NCBI GenBank assembly: GCA_025359825.1
Contig: JANYER010000161.1
Span: forward strand, 1-47,761
Source of the DNA: Granulicella sp.
Lineage (GTDB): Bacteria; Acidobacteriota; Terriglobia; Terriglobales; Acidobacteriaceae
Length of the DNA: 47,761 bases
Direction: 5' to 3'
Shown: positions 24,134 through 47,761 of the stretch, piece after piece
Numbering within the stretch: position 1 is the first letter of the stretch
Layout: each line of letters begins with the position of its first letter
Notes under the pieces: generated by a model
What the model saw: the letters and a program-made list of their open reading frames with translations, nothing else
The model's database searches: none
What the model was told of the DNA's origin: nothing
Position numbers and translations under genes: made by a program

Positions 24134-24193
24134 AGAATCCTCGCTTCCTAAGCACTAAAAGTTGCAATCCAATAACCACCACACACCAATTGT

Positions 24194-26416
24194 TTAGTGC
24201 TCAACCTTGTAGAAGGAAGACGTAATCACCAGGTATGTTGCTACTCGAACCCTCATCGCAGGGTCAGTCAACGTCGCGATATGACTCACGATTACGGAGC
24301 GCATCTGACTTGGCATCTGTCCGTGCATAAACATCACGCCCAGGGCGTCTACCAGGTTGCCACTATCAGTCGTAGCATTCCCAGTCTTCGACGCCATGAT
24401 CCCGAGCGCACTGGTCTTACTCAGGTCAACGTTGAAATTGCTGATGCCGTTATAAACCAACGTATTGGCCAGCGTCAGTCGCAGGACCGCGGTTGCTGTG
24501 TTTTCCTGTCCGAACTCAGGAGCATTCACTTTAGTCCCGGGAATTACATACTCAGGCGAGAAGAAGTTGAAGACGCTTCCTGAACTGTAGGGGCGCTGTC
24601 CAAGGCCACTAGTGTAGTTACCTACCGTATTGTAAGAAGCTAGTGCGACCACATCATTTCCGGCTACTGCGTCCTTATTGGTAAAGTTCAGAGCCCGCAT
24701 CACGTTTGCAATGTACAGCATTGGCTCTCGCAGGTGACCGCCATCGAAGTTTGGGCTCGTATCAGCAGCCCGTGCATCCACGTCTGTCAGCATCGCGGTT
24801 ATGACGGCCCTCATATTTCCACGTTTACCGGTGCCGTCATTCGCAAACACCGCAGCGACACGCGCGACATACGCGGGGCTTGGATTGCTAGCGACCATAT
24901 GCTGGATCAATTGCTTGCAGATAAATGGCCCAACGTTGGGGTGGTTGAACAAATTGCCCAGCGCACCGGAAAGATCGGTCGTAGACGTCTGTCCGGAGGG
25001 CAAAGTCGTGCCCGTTAGAAGCACCTTCGCCGTCATATCGTGCGCACTGTCAATCGCTATCATCGGGGCCGTGTAGTTCGCAGGATTGGTAAACTTCGAG
25101 GTCGCCGCTCCAATCGGTGCGTACGTCCATCCCGTAAACGCTCGCGCAAATGCCTGCACCTGCGTTTCGGTATAGACAGGAATTGGATTACCGCTTCCAT
25201 CCAATTGCTGCGTTCCGTCCGAGTTCAGGAGGTAGATGCCGGTCGTAAACAACTGCATCAGCTCGCGTGCATAGTTTTCATTCGCAATCTGGCCATTCCC
25301 GGGCTTATAGCTGTTCAACATGTTCAGATAATTGCCCATCGCAGGCGACAGCGTCACATCCTGCAAGAGTGTGTAGAAGTTCCCAAACGCATCATTTGCC
25401 AACGTGTTGTGATATGTCGTGACGGAACGCGCATTCACCGAATTCGTCGACACCACAAAAATTTCGCTTAGAGCGAACGCCACCCGCTGCCGCAGCTGGT
25501 CGTTCCCCGTCAACACCGCCTGCCACCACTCCGACTGCTCACATGGGATAGTGTTATTCAGGCAGATTGCAGGCGTTGGGGTGGCAATATCCGGCAATAC
25601 TGTCGTGGGCGCTGCAAATTGTTCCGTTAGATATGCTGTAGTCCCCACTAACTGGACGTGGTTGATATCGTTCAAGGTCGGCCCAAACGTCGCCTGATCC
25701 AGCAATCGCGCCGCAGTTTGTACAGACACTTTTACTGTGAGCACCTGCGCATTCGAGCTCACGGTCATCGTGCCGGGATCGGGATTCGTAACCACCACCG
25801 GCACCGTTGTCAATCCGGCGGCCACCGTGATCGTGCACATCAGCTCTGTGCTGCTCACATACGTGGCAGCAGCGGTCGAACCCCCAACCTGGACCTGCGA
25901 TGTCGGCAAAAAGCCAGTTCCTAGAATATCCAACGCATATGAAGTTCCTATTACTGATTGCGTGGCCTGCGCCGAGGTTACTACCGGAATCGGATTAAGA
26001 ATCGAGGCTGATACGGAACCCTGAAACGGAACTGTGGCACCCACAATTGCCGTGATTGTCACCGCGTTAGAAGTCGGAATCATCGCCGGTGGGGTATAAA
26101 GACCAGCCGAAGTGATCGTGCCAGTTGTCGCCGTTCCGCCTGTAATCCCATTTACCTGCCAGGTCAGGGCGGTTGCAGAGCTGTTCGTAATCGTCGCCGT
26201 AAACTGCTGCGGAGTTCCCAGCCTCAATTGCGTGGCACCAGTCACCGTGACCAGTGGATTCGCCACTGGCGCGGATCCGCCACCTGAGCAGCCGGCCAAC
26301 ACCAGAAGACCGGCTCCCACCATCCCGGCAATGATCTGCCGAAGACCTCGTTTTACCCGTGCAACAGTCGCTGTAGCCACACTTACCTCCGCCAACCCGT
26401 CCGCTAATCGAACCAA
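24194..26416 (-). CDS. DUF1800-family lipoprotein with N-terminal Ig-like domains
   Basis: Lipobox LVLAGC; Ig-like WQVNG..GTITSAGLYTPP; RLLDQATFGP, DQLRQRVAFALSEIFVVS, NENYARELMQLF. Start uncertain. Confidence 0.88.
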   Translation of the reverse strand: MVRLADGLAEVSVATATVARVKRGLRQIIAGMVGAGLLVLAGCSGGGSAPVANPLVTVTGATQLRLGTPQQFTATITNSSATALTWQVNGITGGTATTGTITSAGLYTPPAMIPTSNAVTITAIVGATVPFQGSVSASILNPIPVVTSAQATQSVIGTSYALDILGTGFLPTSQVQVGGSTAAATYVSSTELMCTITVAAGLTTVPVVVTNPDPGTMTVSSNAQVLTVKVSVQTAARLLDQATFGPTLNDINHVQLVGTTAYLTEQFAAPTTVLPDIATPTPAICLNNTIPCEQSEWWQAVLTGNDQLRQRVAFALSEIFVVSTNSVNARSVTTYHNTLANDAFGNFYTLLQDVTLSPAMGNYLNMLNSYKPGNGQIANENYARELMQLFTTGIYLLNSDGTQQLDGSGNPIPVYTETQVQAFARAFTGWTYAPIGAATSKFTNPANYTAPMIAIDSAHDMTAKVLLTGTTLPSGQTSTTDLSGALGNLFNHPNVGPFICKQLIQHMVASNPSPAYVARVAAVFANDGTGKRGNMRAVITAMLTDVDARAADTSPNFDGGHLREPMLYIANVMRALNFTNKDAVAGNDVVALASYNTVGNYTSGLGQRPYSSGSVFNFFSPEYVIPGTKVNAPEFGQENTATAVLRLTLANTLVYNGISNFNVDLSKTSALGIMASKTGNATTDSGNLVDALGVMFMHGQMPSQMRSVIVSHIATLTDPAMRVRVATYLVITSSFYKVEH

Positions 26417-26630: not shown

Positions 26631-27992
26631 CTACCGGGAGATCCACCGCATCCACCCACCCGCAGGTGTCTCCGCCGCCATAAATCGCGCCACGTCTCCC
26701 ACCATCGCCCCAGCCGCCAGCCGGCCACTCCGCACCGCACCCTCCATCGTCGAAGGCCATTCCGTCGCCGTCCAGTCGCCTGCCAGATACAAGCTTGGCC
26801 ACTCTGTAAGCTGCGTCGGACGATACGCGTCCAGTCCCGGTGTTACCGAGAATGTCGCGCGCGCCTCCTTCAGCACCCCACTCTTCAGCAGCTTCGCCTC
26901 CCTCACCTTCGGGAAGAACAGCTCCAACTCCTGCAGCGCCGAAGCCAGAATCTCCTCGCGTCCCATCCCCAACTCCGCCCGCGAAGCACTGATCACCAGC
27001 TCCAGGTAGCTTCCCCGCCCGGTCTCCCAACGTCGTATCCGCGTCTTCGCAAACACCCATTGGATTCGCGTATCCAGCAGTACCGCGTGGTCCATCTCCG
27101 TCACATCCCGGTCGTACCAGAGATGCACCGTAGTAATCGGCGCAGTCACAAATTGCTCAAACTCAATCCCCACCTCTCCACCTAGTCCCGCGATCAGCCG
27201 TTGCGTCTGGCGGAAATCGGTAGCGAGCACGACCGCGTCCGTCAGTTGTTCGCCATCTGCTGTGCGGATCACCCAGCGCCCGTCCCGCTGCTCCAACCCA
27301 TCCACGCCGCACTTCAGCTTTACCGTCACACCTAACTGCTCCGCCAACTCAGCCACCGGCGTAAAGAACTCCGTCAGCGGCACCGCTGGGACCCCCAGCC
27401 GGCCACCTTCCTGCGACTTTAGGAACGACTCATGAAACACCTTGCCCGCATACTTCACCGAGCACTGCTCAAACCCATCGTTCAGCGCCCCCACCACCAC
27501 CGGCTCCCAGAAGTGCCGGATCGCCCGCTCCGTCTGCCCCGTCCGCTTCAGCCAGCTCGCAAAGCTCTCCGTATCGTCCGCAGGATACCCACGCAAGAAT
27601 CGCAGCAACCCCGCAGCAATTCCAGCCTTGTCTTTCAACCCCAGCATCGGTGCCTGCAGAAAACTCAGTGCCTGGTGCATCGGAGCAGGCAGCCCACTCG
27701 GCTTCATCACACTGCGCCGACCACCAGGCTCCAGAAACATCAGCTCGTCGTACCACCGCACCAGGTCACTCGCTCCAGCCTGCTGCATTAACCCTAGTAG
27801 ATTCGTGCAGCAACCCAGCACCACATGCTGCGAATCCACCACCTCGCCCAACGCCGGATGCTCATAGGAGTACGCCCGCCCACCAATTGCCGGGCGACGC
27901 TCCAGCAATGTCACCTTCGCGCCATCGCCCGCCAACGCAACCGCAGCCGCCAGTCCGGCCAACCCGCCGCCGACGACCACCACATCGCTCAA
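26631..27992 (-). CDS. hpnE: Hydroxysqualene dehydroxylase
   Basis: FAD motif GGGLAGL, GGRAYS, DSQHVVLGC, LAGDWT..WPSTMEGAVRSG. TTG start at 27992 overlaps the hpnD stop (TTGA). Confidence 0.92.
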   Translation of the reverse strand: MSDVVVVGGGLAGLAAAVALAGDGAKVTLLERRPAIGGRAYSYEHPALGEVVDSQHVVLGCCTNLLGLMQQAGASDLVRWYDELMFLEPGGRRSVMKPSGLPAPMHQALSFLQAPMLGLKDKAGIAAGLLRFLRGYPADDTESFASWLKRTGQTERAIRHFWEPVVVGALNDGFEQCSVKYAGKVFHESFLKSQEGGRLGVPAVPLTEFFTPVAELAEQLGVTVKLKCGVDGLEQRDGRWVIRTADGEQLTDAVVLATDFRQTQRLIAGLGGEVGIEFEQFVTAPITTVHLWYDRDVTEMDHAVLLDTRIQWVFAKTRIRRWETGRGSYLELVISASRAELGMGREEILASALQELELFFPKVREAKLLKSGVLKEARATFSVTPGLDAYRPTQLTEWPSLYLAGDWTATEWPSTMEGAVRSGRLAAGAMVGDVARFMAAETPAGGWMRWISR

Positions 27993-28894
27993 GCCGTCAC
28001 CCGATTCATCGCCGCCATGCCCATCCCACGCGCCAACGCACCCAGCTTCCCTATCGTCGGCACGCTCACCCGCTGCGAAAATACGTCGTAGTCCACCTTC
28101 GCAATCCGCTTCAGTAGGCCGTGATAGATCGTCACCAGCACCCACAGCGCCGCTCGGCTATCCTTGTCGATCAGCGGCAACAACTCATCAGCAGACGAGT
28201 AATATCCCTCCGCCTTTCTACCGAGTGAGTTCAACATGGAGCGCTCCGGGAATCCCATCGGAGCACCGTCCGCCACCTGCCTGATCCGATCTATATCCGT
28301 CCCAAATTCACTCAGCAAATCCAGCGGCAGATACACCCGTCCCCGCTCCGCGTCTTCTTTCACGTCCCGCAAGATATTCGTCAACTGAAACGCAACACCC
28401 GTCTCCTCAGCCAGCTTCTCAGCTCGCACATCGTTATACCCAAAGATCTTGATGCACACTAAACCCACAACTGAAGCCACCAGGTAGCAGTACTTATAAA
28501 GCTCATCAAAATCGGCATACGTCTGGACTGAATCCGCCACCGCAGGCTCCTGCTCCAGGTCCATCGTCGTTCCCTGCACCAACTGGTCCAGCAGTTCATC
28601 CGAAACCCCAAATCGCTGCTGCGTATCCCGCACCGCAATAAAAACCGCATCGTCAGAAGCCCCACCTGCCTGCACCGCGCGCCACGCCGCAACCCACTCC
28701 GCCATCGCGACCCTCCGAGAGGCAATCGTCATGCTCTCATCGTCGGCAAGATCGTCTGCCTTGCGCATAAACGCGTACACCGCGCACATCGCATCGCTCT
28801 TATGCTGCGGCAGCACGCGGAATGAGTAGTAAAAATTCTTGGCCTCCCGCCTCGCAATCGCCCGGCACTCCAGATACGCTTCAGCAACGGTCAT
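27989..28894 (-). CDS. hpnD: Presqualene diphosphate synthase
   Basis: AKNFYYSF, YAFMRKADDLAD, YCYLVASVVG, FQLTNILRDVKED; lies between hpnC and hpnE. Confidence 0.9.
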   Translation of the reverse strand: MTVAEAYLECRAIARREAKNFYYSFRVLPQHKSDAMCAVYAFMRKADDLADDESMTIASRRVAMAEWVAAWRAVQAGGASDDAVFIAVRDTQQRFGVSDELLDQLVQGTTMDLEQEPAVADSVQTYADFDELYKYCYLVASVVGLVCIKIFGYNDVRAEKLAEETGVAFQLTNILRDVKEDAERGRVYLPLDLLSEFGTDIDRIRQVADGAPMGFPERSMLNSLGRKAEGYYSSADELLPLIDKDSRAALWVLVTIYHGLLKRIAKVDYDVFSQRVSVPTIGKLGALARGMGMAAMNRVTA

Positions 28895-29835
28895 CGTCCA
28901 CCCAACCCCGTCCGCGCCTTATCCAACAACGCTCCCAGCAGCAGCTGCACCTTCTTCACCTTCGTCACCACCGGGCGCCCGCGCAACACGTCATAATCTT
29001 GTGCCGCAATTCCATCCAGAATCGCCTCACCGCCCTTGCGAAACAGATCCAGCGTAACCTTCAGCTCCTTGTCGACAAACCCGCTGATTGCACCGCCCTC
29101 CAGTAGGATCTCCCGCGTACGCCCCACCAGCTCCGCCATCATAGCGCGGAACTCCGGGGTGAACACCCGGCCAAGAATCTGCCCTTCATCCACGCCAAAC
29201 CGCTCCAACGACTCCGCTGGCAAATAGCGCCTGCCTCGCTCCGCATCCTCCACCACATCCTGCCAGAAGTTCGCCAGCTGTAGCGCCGTACAGACCTTGT
29301 CCGAGAGCTGCCCCAGCGCCTCTTCCCGATACCCGCAAACCCAAAGCACAAGCCTGCCCACAGGGTTCGCCGAGTAACGCGAATACTCCAGGAGTTCCTC
29401 CCAAGTCGCATACTCCGTCTTCACCTGATCCAACTTGAAGGCATATAGCAGATCGGCAAACAGCGTCTTCGGCAGCTCACACGCAACAATCGTCTCTCGC
29501 AACGCGACAAATACGGGATGCATCGACCGCTCCGGTGCCTGGTAGCACTCATCCAGCATCCCCTCCCACGTATTTAGTAGCCGCAGCGCAACCTCTGGAT
29601 TCGCCACCTCGTCCCCCAGATCATCCGACACCCGGCAGTACGCGTAGATACTCTCGAAATGCGGCCGCACCTTCTTCGGCAGAAAGAACGTAGCAACGTG
29701 AAAGTTCTCATAGTGAGAGCCAGTCAGCTCCTTACACCAAGCCTCAGCCTCGGCCAGCGTCGGACGCTCCTCCGGCACGAGATACGGCTCAGGCGCACCC
29801 TCCAGTACGTTCCGTCCCTTCACTGTCTCGGTCAT
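28891..29835 (-). CDS. hpnC: Hydroxysqualene synthase
   Basis: HYENFHVA, SDDLGDE, YSRYSANPVGRLVL, CTALQLANFWQD. Confidence 0.93.
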   Translation of the reverse strand: MTETVKGRNVLEGAPEPYLVPEERPTLAEAEAWCKELTGSHYENFHVATFFLPKKVRPHFESIYAYCRVSDDLGDEVANPEVALRLLNTWEGMLDECYQAPERSMHPVFVALRETIVACELPKTLFADLLYAFKLDQVKTEYATWEELLEYSRYSANPVGRLVLWVCGYREEALGQLSDKVCTALQLANFWQDVVEDAERGRRYLPAESLERFGVDEGQILGRVFTPEFRAMMAELVGRTREILLEGGAISGFVDKELKVTLDLFRKGGEAILDGIAAQDYDVLRGRPVVTKVKKVQLLLGALLDKARTGLGGR

Positions 29836-31020: not shown

Positions 31021-31800
31021 ATGTCCTTCGTCTCCCCAGAGGTCTTCGCCAAACAAAAAATTGCCGCCCTCCAGGACTACTCCGTCCTGGCCGGACGCTC
31101 CATCTCAAATCTCTTCTCCCGTCCCATCTACTGGGCGGACATCTACACCCAGATGGACTCCATCGGCGTTGGTTCCCTGCCCATCGTCATCCTCACCGGT
31201 TTCTTTACCGGCTGCGTTCTGGCGCTCCAGTCTGCCACTGCGCTCGAGGCCTTCGGAGCAAAATCAAAGACCGGCTCCCTCGTAGCCCTCTCCATGGTCA
31301 AGGAACTCGGACCCGTCCTCACCGGCCTCATGGTCTCCGGCCGCAACGCCTCCGGCATGGCCTCGGAACTCGGCTCCATGAAGGTTACCGAGCAGATCGA
31401 CGCCATGCGCGCCCTCGGCACAGACCCCATCCGCAAGCTCGTTACCCCCCGCGTACTCGCCACTGTCTTCGTCCTCTTCTTCCTTACCATCATCTCGGAC
31501 GCAGTCGGCATCGCTGGCGGAGCACTCGTCGGCGTCAGCCTCATCGGCCTTAACGCCAGCTCCTACCTCCACAGCTCGTATAACGGACTGGTCATCGGCG
31601 ATATCGCCCAGGGGCTCACCAAGCCGCTCTTCTCCGGCTTCATCATCGCCACGGTCGGCTGTTACTTCGGCCTCAAGACCACCGGCGGCACCCAGGGCGT
31701 AGGTCGTGCCACCACCCAGGCTGTCGTCGTCTCTTCCGTCCTCATCATCGTCGTAGACTTCCTCGTCAGCCGACTCATGATCGGCATCTTCGGAAGCTAA
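31021..31800 (+). CDS. mlaE: MlaE-family ABC transporter permease
   Basis: IGVGSLP, KELGPVLT, ELGSMKVTEQIDAMRALG.DP, GVGRATTQAVV. Confidence 0.9.
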   Translation: MSFVSPEVFAKQKIAALQDYSVLAGRSISNLFSRPIYWADIYTQMDSIGVGSLPIVILTGFFTGCVLALQSATALEAFGAKSKTGSLVALSMVKELGPVLTGLMVSGRNASGMASELGSMKVTEQIDAMRALGTDPIRKLVTPRVLATVFVLFFLTIISDAVGIAGGALVGVSLIGLNASSYLHSSYNGLVIGDIAQGLTKPLFSGFIIATVGCYFGLKTTGGTQGVGRATTQAVVVSSVLIIVVDFLVSRLMIGIFGS

Positions 31801-31804
31801 CCCA

Positions 31805-32644
31805 ATGACCCCTGACGTCACTCCATCCCCGGCCGCAATCCTCACCCCTGACACAGACCAACCAGTCGTCTCGTTCGAAAATGTCTCCATCGCCTTCGAC
31901 GGCAAGACGGTTCTCCAGGACATCTCCTTCGAGGTCCATCAGGCCGAGACCCGCATCATCCTCGGCCCCGCCGGCGGCGGGAAATCCGTCCTCATGAAGC
32001 TCGCCAACGGCCTTCTCAAGCCAGACACTGGCACTATCAAGGTCTTCGGCGAAGATGTCACCTCCATGCGCGAGCGCGATCTCTTCGCCCTCCGCGCACG
32101 TATCGGCATGGTCTTTCAGGAGTCCGCCCTCTTCGACTCCCTCTCGGTAGAAGACAACGTCGCCTACCGCTTGCACGAAGACGGCGTCTCCATCGAAGAG
32201 TCGCATGATCGTGTCGTAGAAGCGCTCCACTTCGTCGAGCTCGACCACGCTATCACTAAGTACCCATCCGAGCTCTCTGGCGGTATGCGACGTCGCGTCT
32301 CTATTGCTCGCGCCATTATCACCAAGCCCGACCTCATCCTCTACGACTCTCCCACCGGTGGCCTGGATCCCATCACCTCCACCACCATCGTCGAACTGAT
32401 CGTCAAGCAGCGCGACGTCTCCCACACCACCTCGCTGCTCATCACCCATCGCTTGCAGGACGCCTTCACCCTCGCCATGAGCCATTTCAATCAGGCCACC
32501 GGCAAGATGGAGCGGCTCGCCAACGAGGGCATCGACGACAGCACCCGCTTCCTCGTCCTCAACGAAGGGAAAGTAATCTTCGACGGCTCTACCCTCGAAC
32601 TCGTCCGCTCCCCGGACCCGTGGATCAAGGACTACCTGAGCTAG
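31805..32644 (+). CDS. mlaF: MlaF/Mkl-like ABC ATP-binding protein
   Basis: Walker A GPAGGGKS, GMVFQESALFDSL, LSGGMRRR, Walker B LILYD-S-PT (non-canonical), ITH. Confidence 0.85.
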   Translation: MTPDVTPSPAAILTPDTDQPVVSFENVSIAFDGKTVLQDISFEVHQAETRIILGPAGGGKSVLMKLANGLLKPDTGTIKVFGEDVTSMRERDLFALRARIGMVFQESALFDSLSVEDNVAYRLHEDGVSIEESHDRVVEALHFVELDHAITKYPSELSGGMRRRVSIARAIITKPDLILYDSPTGGLDPITSTTIVELIVKQRDVSHTTSLLITHRLQDAFTLAMSHFNQATGKMERLANEGIDDSTRFLVLNEGKVIFDGSTLELVRSPDPWIKDYLS

Positions 32645-34320: not shown

Positions 34321-35223
34321 GTGAAATCCCTGAAACATTATCCCTTCGCCCAGAGTGTCCTGACTGCCTTTTTCCTTGCTGCCGGCGGACTTGCGGCACA
34401 GCCTGTTCCCCCCTCAGCGCTCCGCCTGCCTGCACCCGTGGCCAACCAGATGGCCATTCTGGACCTTCCTGATTCTCCCTCCGCCTCTATGCTTCAACAG
34501 CCAAGCACTTCCACTCCGCAACCGGACCCCCACGAAGACGAAAAGGAGAAGAAAAAACTCGAGCACGAAGAGGCCGAGAAGGTCCTGAAGGCAGAGGAGC
34601 GCCAAAGAATCGCCGGAGTCCTCCCTAACTTCAATACCGTCATCGGCGGCTATGCTCCGCCCCTCAGTGCGGGCCAGAAGATGCGTGCCTCCCTCCGCAG
34701 CGCGATCGACCCCGCACAACTTGTCATAGCTGGACTCAGCGCCGGCTATGGTCAGGCCACCGACTCTCACAGCTCTATCGACTCCACCGGCTTCCGCCAC
34801 GGCTACCCCCAGGGCGCCACCGGCTACCTCAAACGCTACGGCGCAGCCTATGCAGACCAGTTCGATGGCACGATCCTCGGCAATGGCGCCTTCCCCGCGC
34901 TGCTGCATCAGGACCCACGCTACTTTCGTCTCGGCAGCGGCCCCATCAAGCACCGCTTTCTATACGCGGCAGCCAGCACCATCCGCTGCAAGAGCGACAA
35001 AGACAAATGGCAGCCGAACGTCTCAAACCTCTTGGGAAACCTGGCCGCTGGAGGCGTCTCGAATCTCTACTACCCCGCAGCAGAACGAGGGTTCGGCCTC
35101 ACCATCGAACAAGGGCTGTTAGTCACCGCCGAAGGCGCGTTTGGCTCATTCCTGCTTGAGTTTTATCCGGACGTACAAAAGAAATTCTCCAACCGCCACA
35201 AGGCTGGAAAATCGAAATCCTAA
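34321..35223 (+). CDS. Exported/envelope hypothetical protein
   Basis: Signal peptide-like N-terminus, LPDSPS linker, ERQRIAGVLPNF, PLSAGQK, LHQDPRYFR; function unknown. Confidence 0.75.
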   Translation: MKSLKHYPFAQSVLTAFFLAAGGLAAQPVPPSALRLPAPVANQMAILDLPDSPSASMLQQPSTSTPQPDPHEDEKEKKKLEHEEAEKVLKAEERQRIAGVLPNFNTVIGGYAPPLSAGQKMRASLRSAIDPAQLVIAGLSAGYGQATDSHSSIDSTGFRHGYPQGATGYLKRYGAAYADQFDGTILGNGAFPALLHQDPRYFRLGSGPIKHRFLYAAASTIRCKSDKDKWQPNVSNLLGNLAAGGVSNLYYPAAERGFGLTIEQGLLVTAEGAFGSFLLEFYPDVQKKFSNRHKAGKSKS

Positions 35224-35777: not shown

Positions 35778-36365
35778 ATGCAGATACTCTTCACCATCTC
35801 GGTCCTCAGCTTCTTCGGGATAACCTGGGCAGCGATTGCCTTCGCCCGCCATATCAAGGCTGGGCAGCTCCGCAATCGCACTGCAACCCTCTCCATCGTT
35901 CCCGCCCGGCCAGACTTCAAACACCATCTCCTTAACGCCCCCCTCTCCAACGTTCCTGCCTTTAGTCCGCTTACTTCCGGTGCCCCCACCACGAGCGCAC
36001 CACCCATCCACACGCCGTTCGCTCGAACCACCTTCGTCCCGGAGAGGCCCACCGTACTGCGAACACGCAGCATGCAGCTCCACCAGTCCGCCAAGGACAT
36101 CACTGCCAGGAAGCAGTGGACCATGCCAACCCAGTCGGGCCGCCCCCAGCGCCGCACCCTTCTGGCCCGGATCACGCATCAGGAATCAGCCCAGAGTCTC
36201 TCCATCGATCGCCGCAAGCCCCCGCTCCCCGCCCGGCACGGTACCATGGAGCTACTCGATCCCGCATACTTCAACAAAGACCTGGGCGACCTTACCGACC
36301 CCTACCAACCCACTCCCGTTCGCGTCAATGAACGCGCTCAATCGTCATCCCGCAGAAAGTTTTAG
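35778..36365 (+). CDS. Hypothetical protein with N-terminal TM helix and Pro-rich tail
   Basis: MQILFTISVLSFFGITWAAIAFARHIK is TM-like; the ORF fills the gap before bioY. Confidence 0.6.
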   Translation: MQILFTISVLSFFGITWAAIAFARHIKAGQLRNRTATLSIVPARPDFKHHLLNAPLSNVPAFSPLTSGAPTTSAPPIHTPFARTTFVPERPTVLRTRSMQLHQSAKDITARKQWTMPTQSGRPQRRTLLARITHQESAQSLSIDRRKPPLPARHGTMELLDPAYFNKDLGDLTDPYQPTPVRVNERAQSSSRRKF

Positions 36366-37997: not shown

Positions 37998-38034
37998 ACC
38001 TCCACGGCAAATTCGACGCGTATACAGTTGAAGT

Positions 38035-38079
38035 TGTCACCCTCCCCCCCAGCGAAGCCGAGGGGAACAGCCTGCTTTT
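38035..38079. repeat. Degenerate REP-like element (TGTCA..AGCGAAGC..CTGCTTT type)
   Basis: tgtcaccc-tccccccc-agcgaagc-cgagggga..cctgctttt; imperfect hairpin, single copy in this window. Confidence 0.4.
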
Positions 38080-38123
38080 CTTCAAATCCTTGTTCTTCAA
38101 TTCGAGAGATACGGAAGTCCCAC

Positions 38124-38744
38124 ATGAAGCAAAAGCTTGACCTCACAATCTGGCCAAGACGCGCCCACTACGAGTTTTTCCGCACCTTCGAAGAGCCTTA
38201 CTATGGTGTCTGTGTCCCCCTCGACAGCACCGCTGCCTATCGCTTCGCCAAGCGCAACGGCATCTCTTTCTTCCACTACTGTCTCTACAACACATCCACT
38301 GCCGCCCTCGCAATCGAGCCATTCCGCCTAAGAATCGAAAACGACGAAGTCATACTCTACGACCGCAGCGACGCCGGCTGCACTATCCCTCGCCCCAACG
38401 GGACTTTCGGCTTCGGCCACATTCCCTACGATCCTGACCTAACCGTCTTCCTCCACAACGCCGCGTTAGAAACCGCACGCGTATCCAGCAGAGAAGATCT
38501 TGAACGCCCTACCGCCAACAACCTTATCCGTCACTCCGCGCTTCCCTGGATCAACTTCACCTCCCTCTCTCATGCCCGGCGCTTCTCCGTCGGCGACACC
38601 TGCCCATGGATCTCATTCGGTAAGCTCACCGAGAGCGACACCATCCGCACTATGCCACTTTCCATTCACGTGCACCATGCCCTCGTCGATGGTCTTGACT
38701 TAGGCCAATTCATTGCCCACTTCCAGGAACTCATGAACGCATGA
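38124..38744 (+). CDS. CatA-like (type A chloramphenicol acetyltransferase family) O-acetyltransferase
   Basis: W.RRAHYEFF, SALPWINFTS, ISFGK, and catalytic MPLSIHVHHALVDG. ATG at 38124. Confidence 0.88.
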   Translation: MKQKLDLTIWPRRAHYEFFRTFEEPYYGVCVPLDSTAAYRFAKRNGISFFHYCLYNTSTAALAIEPFRLRIENDEVILYDRSDAGCTIPRPNGTFGFGHIPYDPDLTVFLHNAALETARVSSREDLERPTANNLIRHSALPWINFTSLSHARRFSVGDTCPWISFGKLTESDTIRTMPLSIHVHHALVDGLDLGQFIAHFQELMNA

Positions 38745-38992: not shown

Positions 38993-39064
38993 CTTCCCCT
39001 CTTATAAATCAAACACAGGCGGCAAATTGCTTTGCCATATCCGTCTGCTTTGCAGAAGGTATTT

Positions 39065-39670
39065 CTAAAAATGAAATACCAGGCCAGTGCTGACATGCAG
39101 AAGATTCTGGCGGTTGTTGATGCCATTCCCGAAGGTCGTCACGAGGTAGTCCGCTTCAAATAGCCGGAGTGACACACGATGATTGATAGGAAGATCCAGC
39201 CCACCCCCAAGGCTGGCTGCAAAGGCATTCGAAGAGCTCGCGGCCTGGCCTTGCACCAGTGATCCGCTGGCATGAGCAAGCCCCACCAGGACCTGTCCAA
39301 ATGGCTGATAGCGGGACGGCTTAAGCGCGGGTGAATAGCGAGCTCCGCCGGTGAACGAACTCAATGTGAGGCTGGTGTTGGAACTGCCGATGTTGTTGGC
39401 ATGGGATGCCGTGACATTACCGACGAGCGCGACGCCACGGATCGCAGTTGGCCATGCAAACTCTGCGCTGCCTCCGTTCAGGTTGAAGCATCCGCATCCT
39501 CCTGGCGGCGCATTGCTGCGCAGGTAGGAATATTCGAATGCCAGCTCCGGGCGCGTGCTCCAGCCTGAATGATCCGGCGAAGACTGGGCTTGCGCTGCGG
39601 CACCCCAGGCTACGACGGCGATCACGAGCAGTACAGTCCCACCAGTCCAGATGCTTCGCTTCGTGCGCAT
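39065..39670 (-). CDS. Small (about 8-stranded) outer-membrane beta-barrel protein
   Basis: Signal peptide ending AQA; amphipathic strands (QPFGQVLVG, ASLGGGLDL); C-terminal VSTGLVFHF with terminal Phe; AGGGG SD. Confidence 0.88.
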   Translation of the reverse strand: MRTKRSIWTGGTVLLVIAVVAWGAAAQAQSSPDHSGWSTRPELAFEYSYLRSNAPPGGCGCFNLNGGSAEFAWPTAIRGVALVGNVTASHANNIGSSNTSLTLSSFTGGARYSPALKPSRYQPFGQVLVGLAHASGSLVQGQAASSSNAFAASLGGGLDLPINHRVSLRLFEADYLVTTFGNGINNRQNLLHVSTGLVFHF

Positions 39671-39682
39671 GGAATCCCCTTT

Positions 39683-42600
39683 TTACTGAACGATCAACGT
39701 CACATTTGTGGTCTGTTGGGTGGCACCGCTGGTTCCGTTGACTGTAATGTTGTAAGTCGCGGCCGCCGAACCAGCAGAGCCGAAACCGCCTCCGCATCCG
39801 GTGATTGTGGTGAGCGCACCCAGAGAGGCAAACAACAGCAACGTCAGCGTGATCCAGCGATAGCGAGCGCGCGGTACGATCAGCAGGCCGATGAAGGCAA
39901 GAGTAGGCATCGCGAGTCGCCACTGGATCAGCTCAGCTGAAGCTCGGGCCGTCTGAATGGTCAGTGTTGAAGTTGCGGGCGAGCTGCCTGGCGTAACTGT
40001 TGCAGGGGTGAAGGTGGCGGTGGCACCGGTCGGCAGTCCACTGGCGGAGAGGGTGACGATATTGGGGTACGCCCCGTTCACCGGCGTTATCGAGATTGCG
40101 AACGTCGCTGCTCCACCCCTTACGACCGTCTGCGACGCGTTGGGCGAGCTCAGCGTGAAGCTGGGAGCCACTGTCCCCGTAGCACTCAGCGCGACGACGT
40201 GAGGTGAGCCGGCGGCACTGTCGGCGACGGTCAGTGTGGCCGCGAAGCTCGTAGCCGACGACGCTGTAAAGGTAACCGAAAGCGTGCAACTCGCACCCGC
40301 TGCCAGAGAGCTGCCACAGGTATTGGTCTGCGCGAAACTGGTCGGGTTGGTGCCTACGAGGGTGATGCCGGTGATTGTCAGGGAAGCGTTGCCGGTGTTT
40401 GTCAAAGTGGCCGTTTGTGCGGCGCTCGTCGTGCCGGCAACCGCGGTGAAGCTGAGTGATGGCGGCGTCAGGCTGACCGCAGCCAAAGCTGCGACAAAAT
40501 TGGCGGTGACGCTTGCAGGCGCGCTCATGGTGACTGTGGTTGAGGCATTGTTGGCGCTTGCGACGCCGCCAGTCCAACTGGTGAAGTTGTAGCCTGAGTT
40601 CGGCGATGCCGTGAGATTGACAACAGTACCAGCTGCGTAGAATGTACCGGATGCCGGGGCCACCGAACCACCCGCCGAAGGACTAGTAGCCGTGGTCAAC
40701 TGATACGCCGTGTTGAAGGCAGCTGTGAGACTCGCTGCGCTCGCCGGGGCGGTGACGGGGTGGGAGATCGCTCCGCCGTCGGACCAGGAGGCGAATGTGT
40801 TCTGCGTCCCGCCCGAGGTCTGTGGCGAAGTAGTCGCCAGCGTATGGGTTGAACCGACGCTCCACGTCAAAGTCTGAGGACTGCTGAAGGATGTTCCATC
40901 CACGCTGAATGAGAGGCCTGCAGAAGTCGTACCCACCACGACTTGAACCCTCAGCGCAGTGACTGTAACAGTAAGCGCAGAGGAGCTACTCGCAGTATCG
41001 TTTGAATCGCCCTGATAGGCTGCTGTGATCGAGTGCTGTCCAACACTTAGCGTGGTGGTCGAATAGGTAGCCGTTCCACCTGCGTTCAGCGTGAGGGTGG
41101 CAAGAGGCGACGAGCCATCCGCAAGCAGGACCTGGCCGGTAGGCACCGCTGTACCCGAGGCCGGTGTAACTGTTGCGGTAAAGGTAACGTTGGCCCCCGA
41201 GGCGACCGAGGTCACGCTGGACTGCAGCAGCGTAGCAGTGGCGACCTGCGGCGCAGCTACGGTGACCATGGCGTTACCTGCAGCGTTGTTGAAGGTGAGA
41301 CTGCTGGCGTTGTCTGGCGTGTAGGTCGCGGTAAGGGTGTCACTCCCGGCGGCGAGAGCGCCCGCTGGGATCGAGAGCGTAACGCTGCCTTGCGCCAATA
41401 CCGCCGCAACAGAGGTATAACTGCCGCTGCTAAGGACAATGGCCCCGGTTGGACTGGACTTCCCGCCACCTGTAGCCACCTTCAGTGTGACCACGAGCGA
41501 CTGCGTCGTTTGGATAGTAAATGCCGCCGGAGTGACCGTAATCGCCGGAGTAATCTTCAACGCCGCTTCCACCGAAACCTGGCTGGTGCCACTGGCGCTC
41601 TTGTAGTTCGGCTGGGCCTGAGAATCGGGCGTGTAGTAGGCAGTAAGTGTATTCGCACCCGCGGGCAGATAGCCGGCGGGAATTGTGATTGTGGTGCTGC
41701 CATTGATAAGCCCCATCGCAAGCGAGGCAAAGTTACCTCCGGAAAGAGTCACCGACCCGCTCGGCGTTGGCCTCGTGCCTCCGCCCCCGCTGACTGCGAT
41801 ACTCACCACAAGGCTCTGCTGCGTGTTGACTGAAAACACCGCTGGCGTCACGGTGACGGTGGGGTTGTTCGGATTGATGACGAGCACAGTAACAGATGCG
41901 CTACCAGCTCCGACGCCGTACGTCGTCGATGCAGTTGTGTCCGGCGTGTAGATCGCATTCAGCGTTGTGCTACCCGCGGCGAGAATGCCGGCAGGAATGG
42001 TGAAGACTGCACTTCCGCCATTCAAGCTCACCGTGGCAGAGGTGTAATTGCCGCCGATCAGCGTCACCGTGCCGGTGGGCGTCGGGCTGCCCGCTTTGCC
42101 CGCTACCGTCACGTTGACCGCATCGCTATCCGCAGTGGTGATACTGGTGGAACTTGGTGTAACCGTCACAGTCGGAGCAGATGTCGCCGCCGTAGTGAAG
42201 GCAGTTCCCGACAGTGCGAACTGCTGCGTGGAGCCACTGGCATTGAGCGTATTGTCGGTCAGGGTGAGCGTGCCGGTCAGTGCGCCGGTGCCGTTCGGCG
42301 TAAACAGAACGCCCACCGTGCAGCTCGCGCCCACTGCGATCGGGGCCGAGACGGAGCATGTCGTCGCGTTCGCATCGAGACTGAAGTTTGTGTTCGAAAG
42401 TGCTAGCCCGCTGATAACCAGCGGCTGATTGCCATTGTTCTTTACGGTTGCGGTCAGCGTGCCATCCGTGGTGTCTGTGGTCCCGATCTTCGTTTGCGTG
42501 GGGAAGAGAAATGCCGGCGCATCGGCAAAGTTGAGCTTCACCAGTTGATTGGTGAGACCCACATTAGACGTCGGAACGTTCGCTGAGCTGGTAGCAATGT

Positions 42601-45600
42601 AGACATTCCCCAGTGCGTCGAGGGTAAGCTCTTCGGGAGTGATGCCGGTGGACCCAAACGATGCCAGGGTCAACACCTGCGTATACCCGCTCGAAGCAAC
42701 AATTTCCTTGATCGCATTGTTACCACTGTCGGCGACGTAGATGTTGCCATAGGCGTCCACTGCTACACCACGAGGAGCATTAAAGCCGCTGCCGACGAGG
42801 CGGCTGATCGTGTAGCTGCTGGAAGCGAGCACCTCCTTAATAGCGTTATTGCCGGTGTCGGTCACGAAGTAGTTGTTCTGCGGATCGATGGCAAGGCTCG
42901 GCGTTTCGCCGCTGAAATCGAAGGATCGGGTCTGGCTCGTCTGGCCCGCGCCTAGATTTTGGTAGCAACTCTGCAGGATGCCACTACCCACAAGGGCAGC
43001 GTCGCCTGAGCCATCGACAACCGTTCTCTGGAAGTAGGTCGCGAACGATGGAACGTCCGTACATTGGGTCTGGAAGAACGTCCCGATCGTCGGCAGAATG
43101 GCAGGATACGGGAGTGCTGAGTTGTTGATCCACAACACGCCGGCTCCATCCAGTGTCAGGCCAATCGGAACAACGAGTGCAGCCGAAGTAGACTGCATCC
43201 CATTTCGGTCCGTGGCCACCAGGGTGCTGCAGGTTGGCCCTGTGCAACCTGCAGGAAACTTCCAGATATCTCCATTGCTGACGATCACTGATTGATCTTT
43301 GCTTAGAATGCTGGAGTCGGCAGCGTACACATTGCCTGCGCCATCGACGGCAATATCGGTCACTGGAGCGTAGAGATTCTTACCCGAGTCGGCGTTGTTC
43401 TGCACGGGCAGAATGTTGTACGGCACAACTGAGTACGGGGTAAATGTGATCTGGGGCGAAGTCCCCGTGCCCTGAATATATGCCTCTCCAAGCCCATTAC
43501 CGGACGAATCCAGCAGCAGGATGCCGCCCTTGCGCTGGCCAGGAAATTTGGGCGTGAAGGTAGCCTTGAGCGTGCAAGTGGCGCCCCTCACAAGTGCCGT
43601 ACCGATGGCACAGGTTCCAGGATCGGTGACAGTGAAATCAAGCCCGGCGACGCCCATCGTCAAGGCATTGATCGTGGCGACCGCGCCCTGCGTACTTACA
43701 CCATTGTTAAGGATGTTGAAAGTAACGCTTTGCACTGCACTCGTTTGGCCGACGGGCACCAGGCCAAAGTCCACCGGATAGGCGCTAAAGGGTGTACTGA
43801 TGTCTGTCCACGCACGATTTGTCACCGGACTGAAGTTGCCCGAACCATCCTGCGCCTTCACTGCGAAGGTGTGCCGCTTGGTGACGATCTGGTAGTTGTT
43901 CGCAAACCCCGCCAGCCCCGAGTAGTTGACGCCGCTCGTACAAGTCGCAAAGGCTGCTCCATCCAGACTGCATTGAAAGCTGACGCCCGCCTGCGCATCG
44001 GTAAACGCGAATGTAGCCGTATCCTCATTGGTCAGGTAGGCCGGCGCAGCAGTAATGATGGGAGCCGGTGGCCCAATAGAATTCACCAGCCAGTTGTAGG
44101 TCGCTGCAGTACTCAGGTTCCCTGCCGAGTCTTTGGCCTTGACCTGGAAGGCATGCGCACCACCACTCAACGAGGAGTAGGTGGCAGGGCTGCTACAAGC
44201 AGCGAACGGCAACGCATCAATGCTGCAGACAAAGCTAATAGGCGTCTGCGTATCGCTGAAGGTAAACGTAGCCGAGGTCGTGTTGGTCGGATTCGTCGGA
44301 GTGCTCAGAATCACCGGAGTCGGCGACAGTGCCACAGCCAGAATCTGGATGACCTGCGTCCCCGGATTAAGGTTCAGATTATTGTCTGTCAGCGTAAGCG
44401 TGGCAGGAAGCGGGCCGGTCTTGGTGGGCTGAAAATCCACCGCGAGATAGCAGGAGCCTCCCACTACAAGCGGAGTGGACGTAGAGCAAGTCGTAAGACT
44501 GTCGAGCTTGAAGGAAGAGTCGGACAATACGATGGAACGGAAGGTCATCGGAGCCGTACCGTTATTCTGGATCGCAATCACCTGCGGCCCATCCTGTACG
44601 TCTGCGACGCCTTGCTGCGTCGCCGTGCGGAAGGTCATCGAAGGCGGATCAACGAAATCCAGCTTGGAGATGGTGCCCTTGATGACGTCATCGAGGTAGA
44701 CATTGCCCACTCCGTCCACCGCCACTCCTTCAGGAAACTGGACAAACGATGGAGAGCACAACCGGATCGCGACTGCATACCCGGAGGCCGCCGTAAATTC
44801 GTTGGCGCAGGAGTCGCCGTAGTCTGCTTCGTAGACATTGCCGCCGCCATCGATAGCCAGGCCGAAGGGCTTGCCGAATACACCAGCCGCAAGCGTCTTA
44901 ATCGTCTGGTAGCCGCCCGCCGCAGGAATCATCAGTAGTGATGTATTGATGGTGGAACAGGAACCGGGAATGAAGATCGTGCACTGGTCGCCACCCTCAG
45001 CGACAAACAGGTCACCTGCCGCATTGACGACAACGCTCCACGGCAAATCGAGCCCCGTGGCCAACGTCTTGATGGTCGTATAGCCTCCCGCGGCCACTAC
45101 TTCCTTGACTGCATTGTTGTAGGTATCGGCCACAAAGACATTGCCGTTCGAGTCCACGCTCAGGCCATACGGCTGATTGAAGCCAGACCCGATCGTTTGC
45201 ATGCAGCTGTACGACTTGCAGCCAACAGGAATCTTCTTGACGTCGCCATTGCCGATCTCAGCGACAAAGATGTTGCCGGCACCATCCACCGCGAGCGCGG
45301 ACGGCCCGTAGAAGGCCCGCAGCACCGTCACCACGCAGCTCGAGTTCGTGCATCCAGCAGGAATCTCCAGAATTGCTCCGGTCCCCAGATCGGCTTCAAA
45401 GACATTGCCGGCTCCGTCCACCGCCACGTTGGGATGGGAGAATCCATCACTCAGAGTGGTAATGCTGAAGGGATAGCCTGTTGATTGAATCCCGTTGTAG
45501 CTGTAGTAAACCTGCGTCTGAAAAGTAATCTGCGCGCCAATCCCGCTGCCATGGATGTAGGTCAGGGCCAGCGGCTGTCCGTTACTGTCCAGCGCCAGAA

Positions 45601-47761
45601 CCGCACCGTTCCGAAGTCCGGCAAACGCTGGGGCAAAGGTTACATTGACTGTGCAGCTCTGCCCCGTGGCTACGTTCACCCCGGCACCGCAGGTGCCACC
45701 CGGAACCACAGCGAAGTCCTTGCCCGTCGCCCCCTGCATGGTCGCGATCAATGTGGCCGGGGTAGAGTTAGCCGCGAAAGTCAACGTAACCGGCTGCGCG
45801 GTGCCGGTCGTGCCAATGGCGATTGAGCCGAAGTCCGCTGGCGACGCCCCAACCGTCGTTGCCGCCGCACCCACTGCGACAAACCCAGCCGCCTTCGCCG
45901 ACACATAGATGGTGGCGCTGGTTGCGTCCGGGGTATACGTCGCAATCAGTTCGTCGGTACCGATAAGGAGCGAGTTCGCCGGAATGGTGATGGTAACGGT
46001 GCCGCTACTAAGTACGGCAGGCGGCGATGTATAGTTACCCCCCGCCAACGAGACAGTTCCCGTAGGCACCGGCGAGCCGCTCACCTGGCCCACCGCTACC
46101 GTCACCGACAGTGGCTGCCCTTGCGAGACGGACAGCACTGCGGGAGTAACAGTAATAGTGGGCACATTCAGGATCGTGGAAGTAACAGTTACGCTGCCCC
46201 TCCCGGCGGCAGGCGTGTACACCGAAGCGCTTGCGGAGTCGGGAAGGTACGTGAATGCCAGGGTGAAGTTTCCGGGCTGCAACGACCCCGCAGGGATCGT
46301 CAGCGTCGCAGAGCCGTTGACCAGCGCCACCGCCGCGGACGAGTAGCCCACTGCAGCGACCTGCACGGTTCCGGTCGCCGTGGGATTGCTACTGCCGCCG
46401 ATTACCTTCACCGTCAGCGTCAACGTCTGGGTCACGGCAACGACCGGCGAACTTATGCTGATGCCTAACACCGGAGTAAACAGACCAGCCCCGGTAAGCG
46501 CCAGGCTCTGTACAGAGCCGGCTACGTTCAGCGTGTTGTCATGGACTGACAGGGATCCTGCAATACTCTTGCCCGTGCCGATGGGATTGAACTGTATGCC
46601 CAGAATGCAGCTGTCTCCAGCAGCGAGCGTAGCTGACGGACTGCAGGTCGTAATACTGCTGTCGAATGAAAAATTTCCGTCGGAGAAGATCAGCCCGGAC
46701 AGCGCCATCGGTTGATTACCGAGATTATCCAGTGAGACCTTTTGCGGGCCGTCTGCCGTGTCCGGTTGTCCCGGCGGGGTGGGTGTCCTGAAGGTAATCG
46801 CGGGTGCCGCTGACCTGCCGATCTCAAATAGCGAAGCCCCACCGATCGATCCGAAATCGATGATATAAAGATCCCCTCCAGCCGAGACCGCTATCCCCGT
46901 CGGACCATTGAAGCCATTCGAAATCAAAGCTGAAGTCGTATATCCGCTGCTGACGAAGAGCTCGGTGACGGTAGTACTTCCGGAGGTAGCCGTTGTAACA
47001 AACAAATTGCCGCTACCATCCGCGGCAATGCCCTGCAACGAATTGAGGTTGCTGCCGATGTCATGGAGAACAGGCGATGCCGAAATACTGCCACCAACTG
47101 CAACAATCTCTTTGATGGTGCGATTCGATGGGTCGGAAAAAAATACATTCCCGGCGCCATCTACCGCGATTCCTTCCAGCGTGTTGTAGCCGCTGGTCAG
47201 CGTCCTGAGTGTCGAGTACCCGCCTGCCGCCACCAGCTCCATTACGCTATAGGCGCTACCCGCGCTGCTGCCGGTAAAGAATAGATTGCCGCTACCATCT
47301 ACCGCAATTCCAACCTGGTTACCAAAGCTGCCTGAAATGATCTTTGTCGTGACATAACCACCGCTACCACCGCTCGCGATAATCTCGGTGATCGTTCCAC
47401 TCGCCCCTACATCGCCTACCCAGATGTTGCCTGCACCGTCGAGTGCCAGCCCCCAGATCGCACGAAACGTTCCCGGTAGTTGAACAATGCAACTGGGCAC
47501 TGTACAACCGACTGGAATCTCAACCACCGACTCCTTCGCGGTGGAAGTATTGTCGCTGGCCATAAAGATGTTCCCGTTACCATCTACAGCGATGCCCTTA
47601 TCTGCGGTGATACCCAGGAACGGAAATCCCGAAGCAGCAATATTCAAAGCATGAAAGCCCGCTTGCGGCCCCGAGCCCACTCCCGAGACATAGGTACTGG
47701 CGAGCACGTTCCCTGCCGCATCATTCAGCGCTACAGCACCCCTGCGGAGTCCAGCAAACAG
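39683..47761 (-). CDS. Giant Ig-like/NHL-repeat surface protein (putative adhesin), 5' end outside window
   Basis: The frame stays open from 47707 to the window end (LFAGLRRGAVALNDAAGNV). NHL blades (GIAVDGxGNxF), ASH/choice-of-anchor-D-like and Big_3-like Ig domains, and a C-terminal TM hairpin followed by GCGG. Confidence 0.93.
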   Translation of the reverse strand: MFAGLRRGAVALNDAAGNVLASTYVSGVGSGPQAGFHALNIAASGFPFLGITADKGIAVDGNGNIFMASDNTSTAKESVVEIPVGCTVPSCIVQLPGTFRAIWGLALDGAGNIWVGDVGASGTITEIIASGGSGGYVTTKIISGSFGNQVGIAVDGSGNLFFTGSSAGSAYSVMELVAAGGYSTLRTLTSGYNTLEGIAVDGAGNVFFSDPSNRTIKEIVAVGGSISASPVLHDIGSNLNSLQGIAADGSGNLFVTTATSGSTTVTELFVSSGYTTSALISNGFNGPTGIAVSAGGDLYIIDFGSIGGASLFEIGRSAAPAITFRTPTPPGQPDTADGPQKVSLDNLGNQPMALSGLIFSDGNFSFDSSITTCSPSATLAAGDSCILGIQFNPIGTGKSIAGSLSVHDNTLNVAGSVQSLALTGAGLFTPVLGISISSPVVAVTQTLTLTVKVIGGSSNPTATGTVQVAAVGYSSAAVALVNGSATLTIPAGSLQPGNFTLAFTYLPDSASASVYTPAAGRGSVTVTSTILNVPTITVTPAVLSVSQGQPLSVTVAVGQVSGSPVPTGTVSLAGGNYTSPPAVLSSGTVTITIPANSLLIGTDELIATYTPDATSATIYVSAKAAGFVAVGAAATTVGASPADFGSIAIGTTGTAQPVTLTFAANSTPATLIATMQGATGKDFAVVPGGTCGAGVNVATGQSCTVNVTFAPAFAGLRNGAVLALDSNGQPLALTYIHGSGIGAQITFQTQVYYSYNGIQSTGYPFSITTLSDGFSHPNVAVDGAGNVFEADLGTGAILEIPAGCTNSSCVVTVLRAFYGPSALAVDGAGNIFVAEIGNGDVKKIPVGCKSYSCMQTIGSGFNQPYGLSVDSNGNVFVADTYNNAVKEVVAAGGYTTIKTLATGLDLPWSVVVNAAGDLFVAEGGDQCTIFIPGSCSTINTSLLMIPAAGGYQTIKTLAAGVFGKPFGLAIDGGGNVYEADYGDSCANEFTAASGYAVAIRLCSPSFVQFPEGVAVDGVGNVYLDDVIKGTISKLDFVDPPSMTFRTATQQGVADVQDGPQVIAIQNNGTAPMTFRSIVLSDSSFKLDSLTTCSTSTPLVVGGSCYLAVDFQPTKTGPLPATLTLTDNNLNLNPGTQVIQILAVALSPTPVILSTPTNPTNTTSATFTFSDTQTPISFVCSIDALPFAACSSPATYSSLSGGAHAFQVKAKDSAGNLSTAATYNWLVNSIGPPAPIITAAPAYLTNEDTATFAFTDAQAGVSFQCSLDGAAFATCTSGVNYSGLAGFANNYQIVTKRHTFAVKAQDGSGNFSPVTNRAWTDISTPFSAYPVDFGLVPVGQTSAVQSVTFNILNNGVSTQGAVATINALTMGVAGLDFTVTDPGTCAIGTALVRGATCTLKATFTPKFPGQRKGGILLLDSSGNGLGEAYIQGTGTSPQITFTPYSVVPYNILPVQNNADSGKNLYAPVTDIAVDGAGNVYAADSSILSKDQSVIVSNGDIWKFPAGCTGPTCSTLVATDRNGMQSTSAALVVPIGLTLDGAGVLWINNSALPYPAILPTIGTFFQTQCTDVPSFATYFQRTVVDGSGDAALVGSGILQSCYQNLGAGQTSQTRSFDFSGETPSLAIDPQNNYFVTDTGNNAIKEVLASSSYTISRLVGSGFNAPRGVAVDAYGNIYVADSGNNAIKEIVASSGYTQVLTLASFGSTGITPEELTLDALGNVYIATSSANVPTSNVGLTNQLVKLNFADAPAFLFPTQTKIGTTDTTDGTLTATVKNNGNQPLVISGLALSNTNFSLDANATTCSVSAPIAVGASCTVGVLFTPNGTGALTGTLTLTDNTLNASGSTQQFALSGTAFTTAATSAPTVTVTPSSTSITTADSDAVNVTVAGKAGSPTPTGTVTLIGGNYTSATVSLNGGSAVFTIPAGILAAGSTTLNAIYTPDTTASTTYGVGAGSASVTVLVINPNNPTVTVTPAVFSVNTQQSLVVSIAVSGGGGTRPTPSGSVTLSGGNFASLAMGLINGSTTITIPAGYLPAGANTLTAYYTPDSQAQPNYKSASGTSQVSVEAALKITPAITVTPAAFTIQTTQSLVVTLKVATGGGKSSPTGAIVLSSGSYTSVAAVLAQGSVTLSIPAGALAAGSDTLTATYTPDNASSLTFNNAAGNAMVTVAAPQVATATLLQSSVTSVASGANVTFTATVTPASGTAVPTGQVLLADGSSPLATLTLNAGGTATYSTTTLSVGQHSITAAYQGDSNDTASSSSALTVTVTALRVQVVVGTTSAGLSFSVDGTSFSSPQTLTWSVGSTHTLATTSPQTSGGTQNTFASWSDGGAISHPVTAPASAASLTAAFNTAYQLTTATSPSAGGSVAPASGTFYAAGTVVNLTASPNSGYNFTSWTGGVASANNASTTVTMSAPASVTANFVAALAAVSLTPPSLSFTAVAGTTSAAQTATLTNTGNASLTITGITLVGTNPTSFAQTNTCGSSLAAGASCTLSVTFTASSATSFAATLTVADSAAGSPHVVALSATGTVAPSFTLSSPNASQTVVRGGAATFAISITPVNGAYPNIVTLSASGLPTGATATFTPATVTPGSSPATSTLTIQTARASAELIQWRLAMPTLAFIGLLIVPRARYRWITLTLLLFASLGALTTITGCGGGFGSAGSAAATYNITVNGTSGATQQTTNVTLIVQ

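Follow-up and report, generated by a model that had tools for sequence, protein, structure and literature searches.

A catalogued lipo-invert tail, a putative C-terminal anchor within a predicted split Ig domain, on a Granulicella contig and in three families of Terriglobia

The window analyzed in this work is the whole contig of a Granulicella sp. assembly (47,761 nt), one end of which is occupied by a giant reading frame on the reverse strand (39683..47761) coding for a passenger protein of at least 2692 aa, whose 5' end is cut off by the end of the contig. The translation of 39683-40171 (-) is exactly the sequence quoted in the initial annotation and represents the end of this 2692-codon frame, which is open at the contig end. 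According to the domain profile matches, the repeats of the passenger are of the NHL/SBBP propeller type; the protein also embeds six choice-of-anchor D and six Big_3_5 stretches and one Flg_new_2, with no catalytic family among the passenger domain matches. The N-terminus of the passenger is missing, and several close full-length relatives start, as judged by eye, in a signal-peptide-like manner; a signal-like N-terminal stretch was found in 104 of the 115 complete members by a simple heuristic with no negative control. The passenger is followed by a gene coding for a protein of 201 aa with a signal-peptide-like start (39065..39670, reverse strand), predicted to be an 8-stranded outer-membrane beta-barrel, which begins 12 nt past the passenger stop behind a purine-rich, SD-like spacer. 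No terminator-like site was found between the two genes; the terminator-like hairpin located after the barrel gene (39020..39037, reverse strand) is weak, with three such hairpins found versus 1.3 +/- 1.3 in shuffles.

The tail of the passenger consists of a series of short elements, all on the reverse strand. The N-terminal part of the terminal Ig domain (residues 1-75, 39947..40171) holds strands A-E, as predicted by the AlphaFold model and by the alignment to a continuous Ig domain. It is followed by a first hydrophobic segment (residues 86-100, 39872..39916), a predicted Pro-containing out-to-in helix, which is short in the window copy (15 uncharged residues with Arg85 in front, versus a median uncharged run of 20 in the family) and is modelled with low confidence (pLDDT about 60-80), being helical only at residues 94-97. 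The next element is the basic loop RARYR (residues 101-105, 39857..39871), presumably cytoplasmic, which reads RRRR in close relatives and has a median net charge of +5 in 246 pooled tails. The second hydrophobic segment (residues 106-125, 39797..39856; modelled helix 105-121) resembles the h-region of a signal peptide and ends with ITG; its length is 20 uncharged residues here, and the median of the 246 pooled tails is 19. Cys126, the predicted lipidation site, follows at 39794..39796 (GCA on the forward strand, that is, a TGC codon), and the 36 residues after it give a tail of 37 aa. These comprise a tether starting with GGGF (39755..39793), whose Phe130 (39782-39784) is of the aromatic type seen in barrel-adjacent tails, and then F and G, predicted as the two final strands of the terminal Ig domain (39686..39754; modelled strands 138-148 and 151-161, pLDDT 95-98). 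In the window copy 57 residues follow the basic cluster, which is thus not at the extreme C-terminus.

The AlphaFold model of the tail, built from 132 sequences, has a pLDDT of 86.5 and places six strands before the insert (residues 4-8, 13-16, 21-31, 39-44, 51-55, and 66-73); these and the two strands after it reach pLDDT values of 89-98, the first helix being weak. Residues 3-162 of the model superimpose on a continuous Ig domain, that of the sialidase 1eut_A (404-502, 99 residues), with Z 11.4, rmsd 2.5, and 97 aligned residues; the rows following 1eut_A in the structure search are single Ig domains too, and Foldseek agrees. The initial annotation had suggested that the hairpin is inserted inside one Ig fold of a type that is normally uninterrupted, and both ideas are in agreement with our data. 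Indeed, the model and the alignment with 1eut_A support a single predicted sandwich built from both flanks, and HMMs of the flanks only, run on 265 proteins, retrieved 932 uninterrupted copies of this Ig type (gap <20 residues, median E-F gap 4); the same HMMs retrieved 107 terminal copies with an insert of 35-95 residues, all 107 of them with a basic cluster and [GAS]C. Six internal gaps of 35-95 residues were judged by eye to be repeats skipped by the HMM. In the standard Ig topology the E-F loop sits at the pole opposite the N-terminus, which would direct the insert away from the passenger. One subfamily of four sequences (L008, L061, L071, and L110; example locus G000:C370:4174-8289 and relatives) possesses an additional Cys behind strand E and a second one 3-5 residues past the lipobox Cys; this pair likely forms a disulfide across the insert and stems from one evolutionary event. 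In a further sequence, L191, the tail frame ends right after the tether, before strands F-G, as a result of either a broken gene or an assembly error.

Cys126 is the only invariant column of the 132 aligned genome members (131 identified by script and one, L118, by eye), and the Cys is present in 107/107 proteins picked by the flank-only HMMs. A scan of the Granulicella genome that was blind to the Cys yielded 45 candidates, and all 12 Ig-ending hairpin proteins carry it. The homologue sets were initially collected with Cys-containing queries, and the invariance is therefore somewhat favoured. The residue preceding the Cys in the 246 pooled tails is G in 162, A in 48, and S in 36, a composition partly imposed by the search pattern, and the residue at +2 is G in 188, S in 30, A in 13, and Asp once. 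Gly at -1 is found in 162/246 tails and in 17/29 N-terminal lipoprotein-like starts of the Granulicella genome, but in only 2/34 Cys located after helices of polytopic proteins, used as a comparison set; no basic residues were seen after the Cys in the tails compared. The Cys is thus invariant in the sets examined, and the suggestion of the initial annotation that the second half of the insert looks like an SPII-type lipoprotein signal is supported at the sequence level by RARYR, the 20 uncharged residues, ITG-C, and a composition like that of the genome's own N-terminal lipobox-like sites. According to the rule established for E. coli, lipoproteins without Asp at +2 may be transferred to the outer membrane; since Asp occurs at this position in 1/246 tails, such a transfer would be allowed.

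The idea that this tail had no existing description is not supported, since NCBIfam already models it as a 'putative' anchor; an existing family for the signal was one of the objections that the initial annotation had itself set out, and it applies in part. The window copy matches NF058595.1 invert_tail (release 20.0), whose name is 'lipo-invert putative C-terminal anchoring domain-containing protein', with 55.7 bits versus a cut-off of 37, over model positions 1-113/113 and residues 66-162; in the genome-wide search it scores 58.1 bits. The features named by the family are found here, that is, the end at the stop of the 2692-codon frame and ITG-C126 after a hydrophobic segment. All 132 aligned members match NF058595 and, at E <= 0.001, otherwise only TIGR03769 (2 members). 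These profile matches place the tail in the catalogued lipo-invert family, whose anchoring function is putative. The model describes the same module, starting at strand E and leaving the N-part of the Ig domain outside, and its name is silent on both the split Ig and the barrel. A search of mostly open-access literature found nothing on the lipo-invert/NF058595 tail or on an internal lipobox, and a term search of the main text of the myxosortase discovery preprint gave no 'Acidobacter', 'invert', or 'lipobox'.

The Granulicella genome contains 13 matches to the family, 11 of which are over the cut-off; all are C-terminal, and 13/13 end 0-2 residues from the stop with [GA]C. Together with the ratio of 932 to 107 Ig copies, this rules out chance or a frame artefact. 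Among 201 genomes of the phylum (a tally that includes the unpublished genome G023, whose weak match supports no claim here), 19 are over the cut-off, namely all 17 genomes that belong to the family, a single further genome from the class, and a partial non-member; L132 (G044), a partial match lying 533 residues from the end and not a member, was left out. Within the Terriglobia, the tail occurs in all genomes of three families (f1, f2, and f72; 64/64, that is, 22/22, 21/21, and 21/21) and in 5/86 genomes of the other ten families. Most of the relatives that bear a name belong to the Acidobacteriaceae (Terracidiphilus, Granulicella), and Acidiferrales and Sulfotelmatobacter are also represented; the outliers, possibly binning errors, are two loci of a single Bryobacterales MAG and one of a Tepidisphaeraceae MAG. 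The tail is thus a real, widespread, and catalogued module and a putative anchor. A divergent set of tails with acidic tethers was also observed on CSLREA-type passengers (P0099, P0159, P0220, P0222, and P0243). One member of this divergent cluster is labelled Planctomycetota, so that, judging from sequence, the module may extend beyond the Acidobacteriota, a binning error being possible.

As regards the downstream gene, which the initial annotation had overlooked, the model of its product has 8 strands (pLDDT 87.2), and the closest folds are NspA (1p4t_A, Z 18.0, rmsd 2.3, 147 aligned residues), OmpW (16.5), and OmpA (16.3). The predicted fold is like that of these proteins at an identity of 10-14%; unlike them, the barrel has conserved CxC and NGxxNxQN loops. 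PF13505 was detected in 27/66 barrel relatives, and the window's own copy reached no curated family in the profile search. The barrel gene follows the tail in 70/80 of the closest named loci and, in the reverse direction, among the 25 strongest barrel matches in 151 genomes of the class, 18 lie directly behind a tail; six of the other seven follow, by eye, other large exported-type proteins. At L215, L220, L284, and L285, and at L228 and L286, the protein preceding a member of the barrel family is large, beta-rich, of exported type, and free of the tail; two different kinds of such proteins are represented, and the barrel family may therefore partner surface proteins in general. In unbiased samples, a barrel is found beside just 12/132 and 4/39 tails (about 10%), and tail-rich genomes, G187, G119, and G169 among them, have no close barrel; these data rule out the barrel as an obligatory part of the system and make it a subtype feature, its role in docking the tail complex being hypothetical.

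An aromatic residue (F/Y/W) at +2 to +8 after the Cys is found in 90/97 barrel-adjacent tails and in 17/161 others, a count that excludes L274, located at a contig end, and L216, which possesses a barrel, the Cys, and Phe at +8 but escaped the lipobox filter. In 39 tails of other families, picked regardless of the barrel, the aromatic residue occurs in 3/4 tails with a barrel versus 2/35 without one (Fisher p 0.004, the kin not being independent). A tree-aware test of aromatic residue versus barrel, with 5-6 independent pairs, was not significant (sign test p 0.5-1), and five tails beside weaker barrels have no aromatic residue. The pair test left out L191, whose frame ends after the tether, L203, which has a short flank, and three loci with <700 downstream bases. 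The prediction of a complex between the Ig N-part, the 37-aa tail, and the barrel scored 0.11 versus a mark of 0.32, in a run whose controls did not fold, and speaks neither in favour of binding nor against it. Elsewhere in the Granulicella genome, a tail with CGC after the lipobox (G000:C310:3-413) precedes a gene for a 575-aa protein (G000:C310:484-2208) with a weak barrel match and, by eye, an OmpA-like C-terminal part.

Of the machinery that could process and transport such a tail, Lgt, a rhomboid, Lnt, and LolA are each present in 5/5 genomes tested and LspA in the 4/4 complete ones, where it is single-copy; LspA was not found in the Granulicella assembly, which is 86% complete. Since this machinery is universal, and Lnt and LolA are present also in the tail-negative genome G212, it is evidence of feasibility only. 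Lgt-family genes number two in the Granulicella genome (G000:C364:2189-2983 and C347:2429-3142), three in G187, and four in G160. A dedicated Lgt paralogue is ruled out as a requirement by G169, which has many tails and a single Lgt.

On this basis, our preferred reading, which we hold tentatively and to which we give a chance approaching but not reaching even, is that the tail works as an internal lipoprotein signal, and that the lipopeptide released by Lgt and LspA would complete the Ig domain and tether the passenger, with a cut in helix 1 and a transfer to the outer membrane. We infer every one of these processing and transport steps, the cut in helix 1 and the role of the barrel being the least secure. 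The passenger would be exported by its N-terminal signal; helix 1 would stop the transfer, leaving the Arg loop inside, and helix 2 would bring the tail back to the periplasm, where the Ig domain would fold from both flanks. Cys126 would then receive its lipid from Lgt, the chain would be cleaved just before this residue by LspA, and Lnt might also mature the tail; the 37-residue lipopeptide would remain bound as the last two predicted Ig strands (F and G), tethering the passenger. A rhomboid-type protease would be the likely candidate for cutting the Pro-rich helix 1, a cut that would free the passenger together with the lipopeptide for a Lol-dependent transfer to the outer membrane. Where a barrel is co-encoded, this predicted 8-stranded protein may serve as the docking site of the complex, possibly via the aromatic residue after the Cys. 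We know of no case in which Lgt/LspA work on a signal that has a membrane helix in front of it, and none was found in the mostly open-access literature searched.

Different explanations of the same data can be proposed. It might be that Lgt and LspA act and helix 1 is never cut, so that the hairpin would keep the passenger in the inner membrane and the role of the lipopeptide would be limited to completing the Ig domain. This is in agreement with the lack of a conserved protease motif in helix 1 of the 246 pooled tails and with the finding that no dedicated protease gene is present among the recurring downstream neighbours of 109 loci, as checked by clustering and by eye. However, a lipid would be redundant beside two helices, passengers carrying the tail reach 2,000-4,000 aa, presumably large for a periplasm, and the adjoining gene codes for a predicted outer-membrane barrel; moreover, Pro is enriched in helix 1 (205/246 tails) over helix 2 (49/246). 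For these reasons an uncut helix 1 appears unlikely.

A second possibility, which we regard as rather unlikely, is that no backbone cut takes place at all, the hairpin being a permanent two-helix anchor in an Ig loop and the Cys being lipidated or otherwise modified in place. Gly, Ala, or Ser at -1 serves Lgt recognition as well as that by LspA, so the residue at this position fits such a scheme too, and the intact chain folds well in the model. The retention of the full n-h-lipobox pattern, including the length of the h-region and the preferences at -3/-2/-1, and the presence of LspA, single-copy in complete genomes, argue for cleavage instead.

The occurrence of many tags per genome and a sharp clade boundary (64/64 versus 5/86) are typical of systems with a dedicated, lineage-specific sortase-like enzyme, such as MrtX for MYXO-CTERM and RssP for GlyGly-CTERM, and the extra Lgt paralogues (2-4) in the genus would fit such an enzyme acting in place of Lgt/LspA. 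Nevertheless, the single Lgt of the tail-rich G169, the position of the Cys after the helix, as in SPII substrates, and the 0/132 tails that match the MYXO-, GlyGly-, or PEP-CTERM models make this scenario improbable. Finally, the translation of the tail from an internal start, as a small lipoprotein that would complete the Ig domain in trans, can be rejected as hardly credible: an ATG lies <=25 codons ahead of the basic loop in 51/119 members versus 20% of control windows, an excess that we infer to be what a hydrophobic stretch gives, but a start with an SD-like motif occurs in 6/119, compared with 4% of 2360 control windows and 43/104 true starts, and helix 1 is conserved upstream in frame.

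The preferred reading, in which Lgt/LspA processing of an internal signal is followed by a cut in helix 1, can be compared with known systems. Classical Sec/SPII lipoproteins have in common with the tail a basic n-region, an h-region of about 19 residues, [GAS]-C, and a small residue at +2. However, their signal is N-terminal, whereas that of the tail is found about 60 residues before the C-terminal end and is preceded by an exported passenger and an extra hydrophobic segment, and their product is a folded protein, whereas that of the tail would be a two-strand peptide. The MYXO-CTERM tag, cleaved by the myxosortase MrtX for surface anchoring, shares with the tail the multi-copy C-terminal occurrence, an invariant Cys, a helix, and an Arg cluster; in MYXO-CTERM, however, the Cys precedes a single helix and the C-terminus is Arg-rich, whereas in the tail the Cys comes after the second helix and is followed by 36 residues (PMC11980579). 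The MYXO-CTERM model gave no match in 132 members. In the GlyGly-CTERM/rhombosortase system, a rhomboid cuts the same out-to-in layout that helix 1 and the Arg cluster of the tail display (bioRxiv 10.64898/2026.02.05.703148); the tail differs in that none of the 132 members matches that model and in that the layout is not at the chain end. The tail is thus a member of neither MYXO-CTERM nor GlyGly-CTERM.

A parallel for the tether may be offered by MAIN (microbial GAIN) domains (bioRxiv 10.64898/2026.05.12.724683) and by SEAL domains (PMC10556640), which are reported to be cut close to the membrane or wall and to retain a large ectodomain on its anchor through non-covalent contacts, from which it may be releasable. 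These domains reportedly cleave themselves at a beta-turn and involve neither lipid nor hairpin, whereas both elements are predicted in the tail; the main text of the MAIN preprint contains no 'lipoprotein', 'lipobox', or 'Acidobacter'. The best fold matches of the tail are plain Ig-like domains, with no GAIN- or SEA-type domain among the matches listed, an absence that excludes nothing. By analogy, the proposed mechanism would work like an SPII lipoprotein signal combined with a non-covalent tether of the MAIN/SEAL type.

Since a genome of the three families of Terriglobia can code for as many as about 20 large exported proteins with the tail, it is probably a main display route for enzymes and adhesins in these abundant bacteria. 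If the mechanism proposed is true, internal sites are accessible to lipoprotein maturation, and proteins can be lipid-anchored at their C-terminus with housekeeping enzymes. The broader idea of a Gram-negative sorting pathway, in which an internal lipobox and a second protease removing the hairpin would place giant surface proteins on a lipopeptide via split-Ig strand complementation and, in one subtype, a dedicated barrel would recognise an aromatic residue near the lipid and display or dock the complex at the surface, is conceivable and, taken as a whole, doubtful. What is new at the Granulicella locus, the tail itself being known from NCBIfam, is a candidate outer-membrane partner, the barrel, and Phe130 as a single-residue handle.

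The rest of the window harbors other genes. Five ORFs of 195-532 aa have no Pfam match (4164-5762 and 31264-32485 on the reverse strand; 5889-7154, 34321-35223, and 35778-36365 on the forward strand), and some of them may be shadow frames. A chloramphenicol-acetyltransferase-like protein is encoded at 38028-38744 (+), with PF00302 above its cut-off and a score below every NCBIfam CatA cut-off. A gene pair coding for a DUF1800 protein, with a TIG domain, and a DUF1501 protein is located at 22787-26416 (-), and two squalene/phytoene synthase genes and a flavin amine oxidoreductase gene are found at 26631-29835 (-), an arrangement that we take to be hpnCDE-like.
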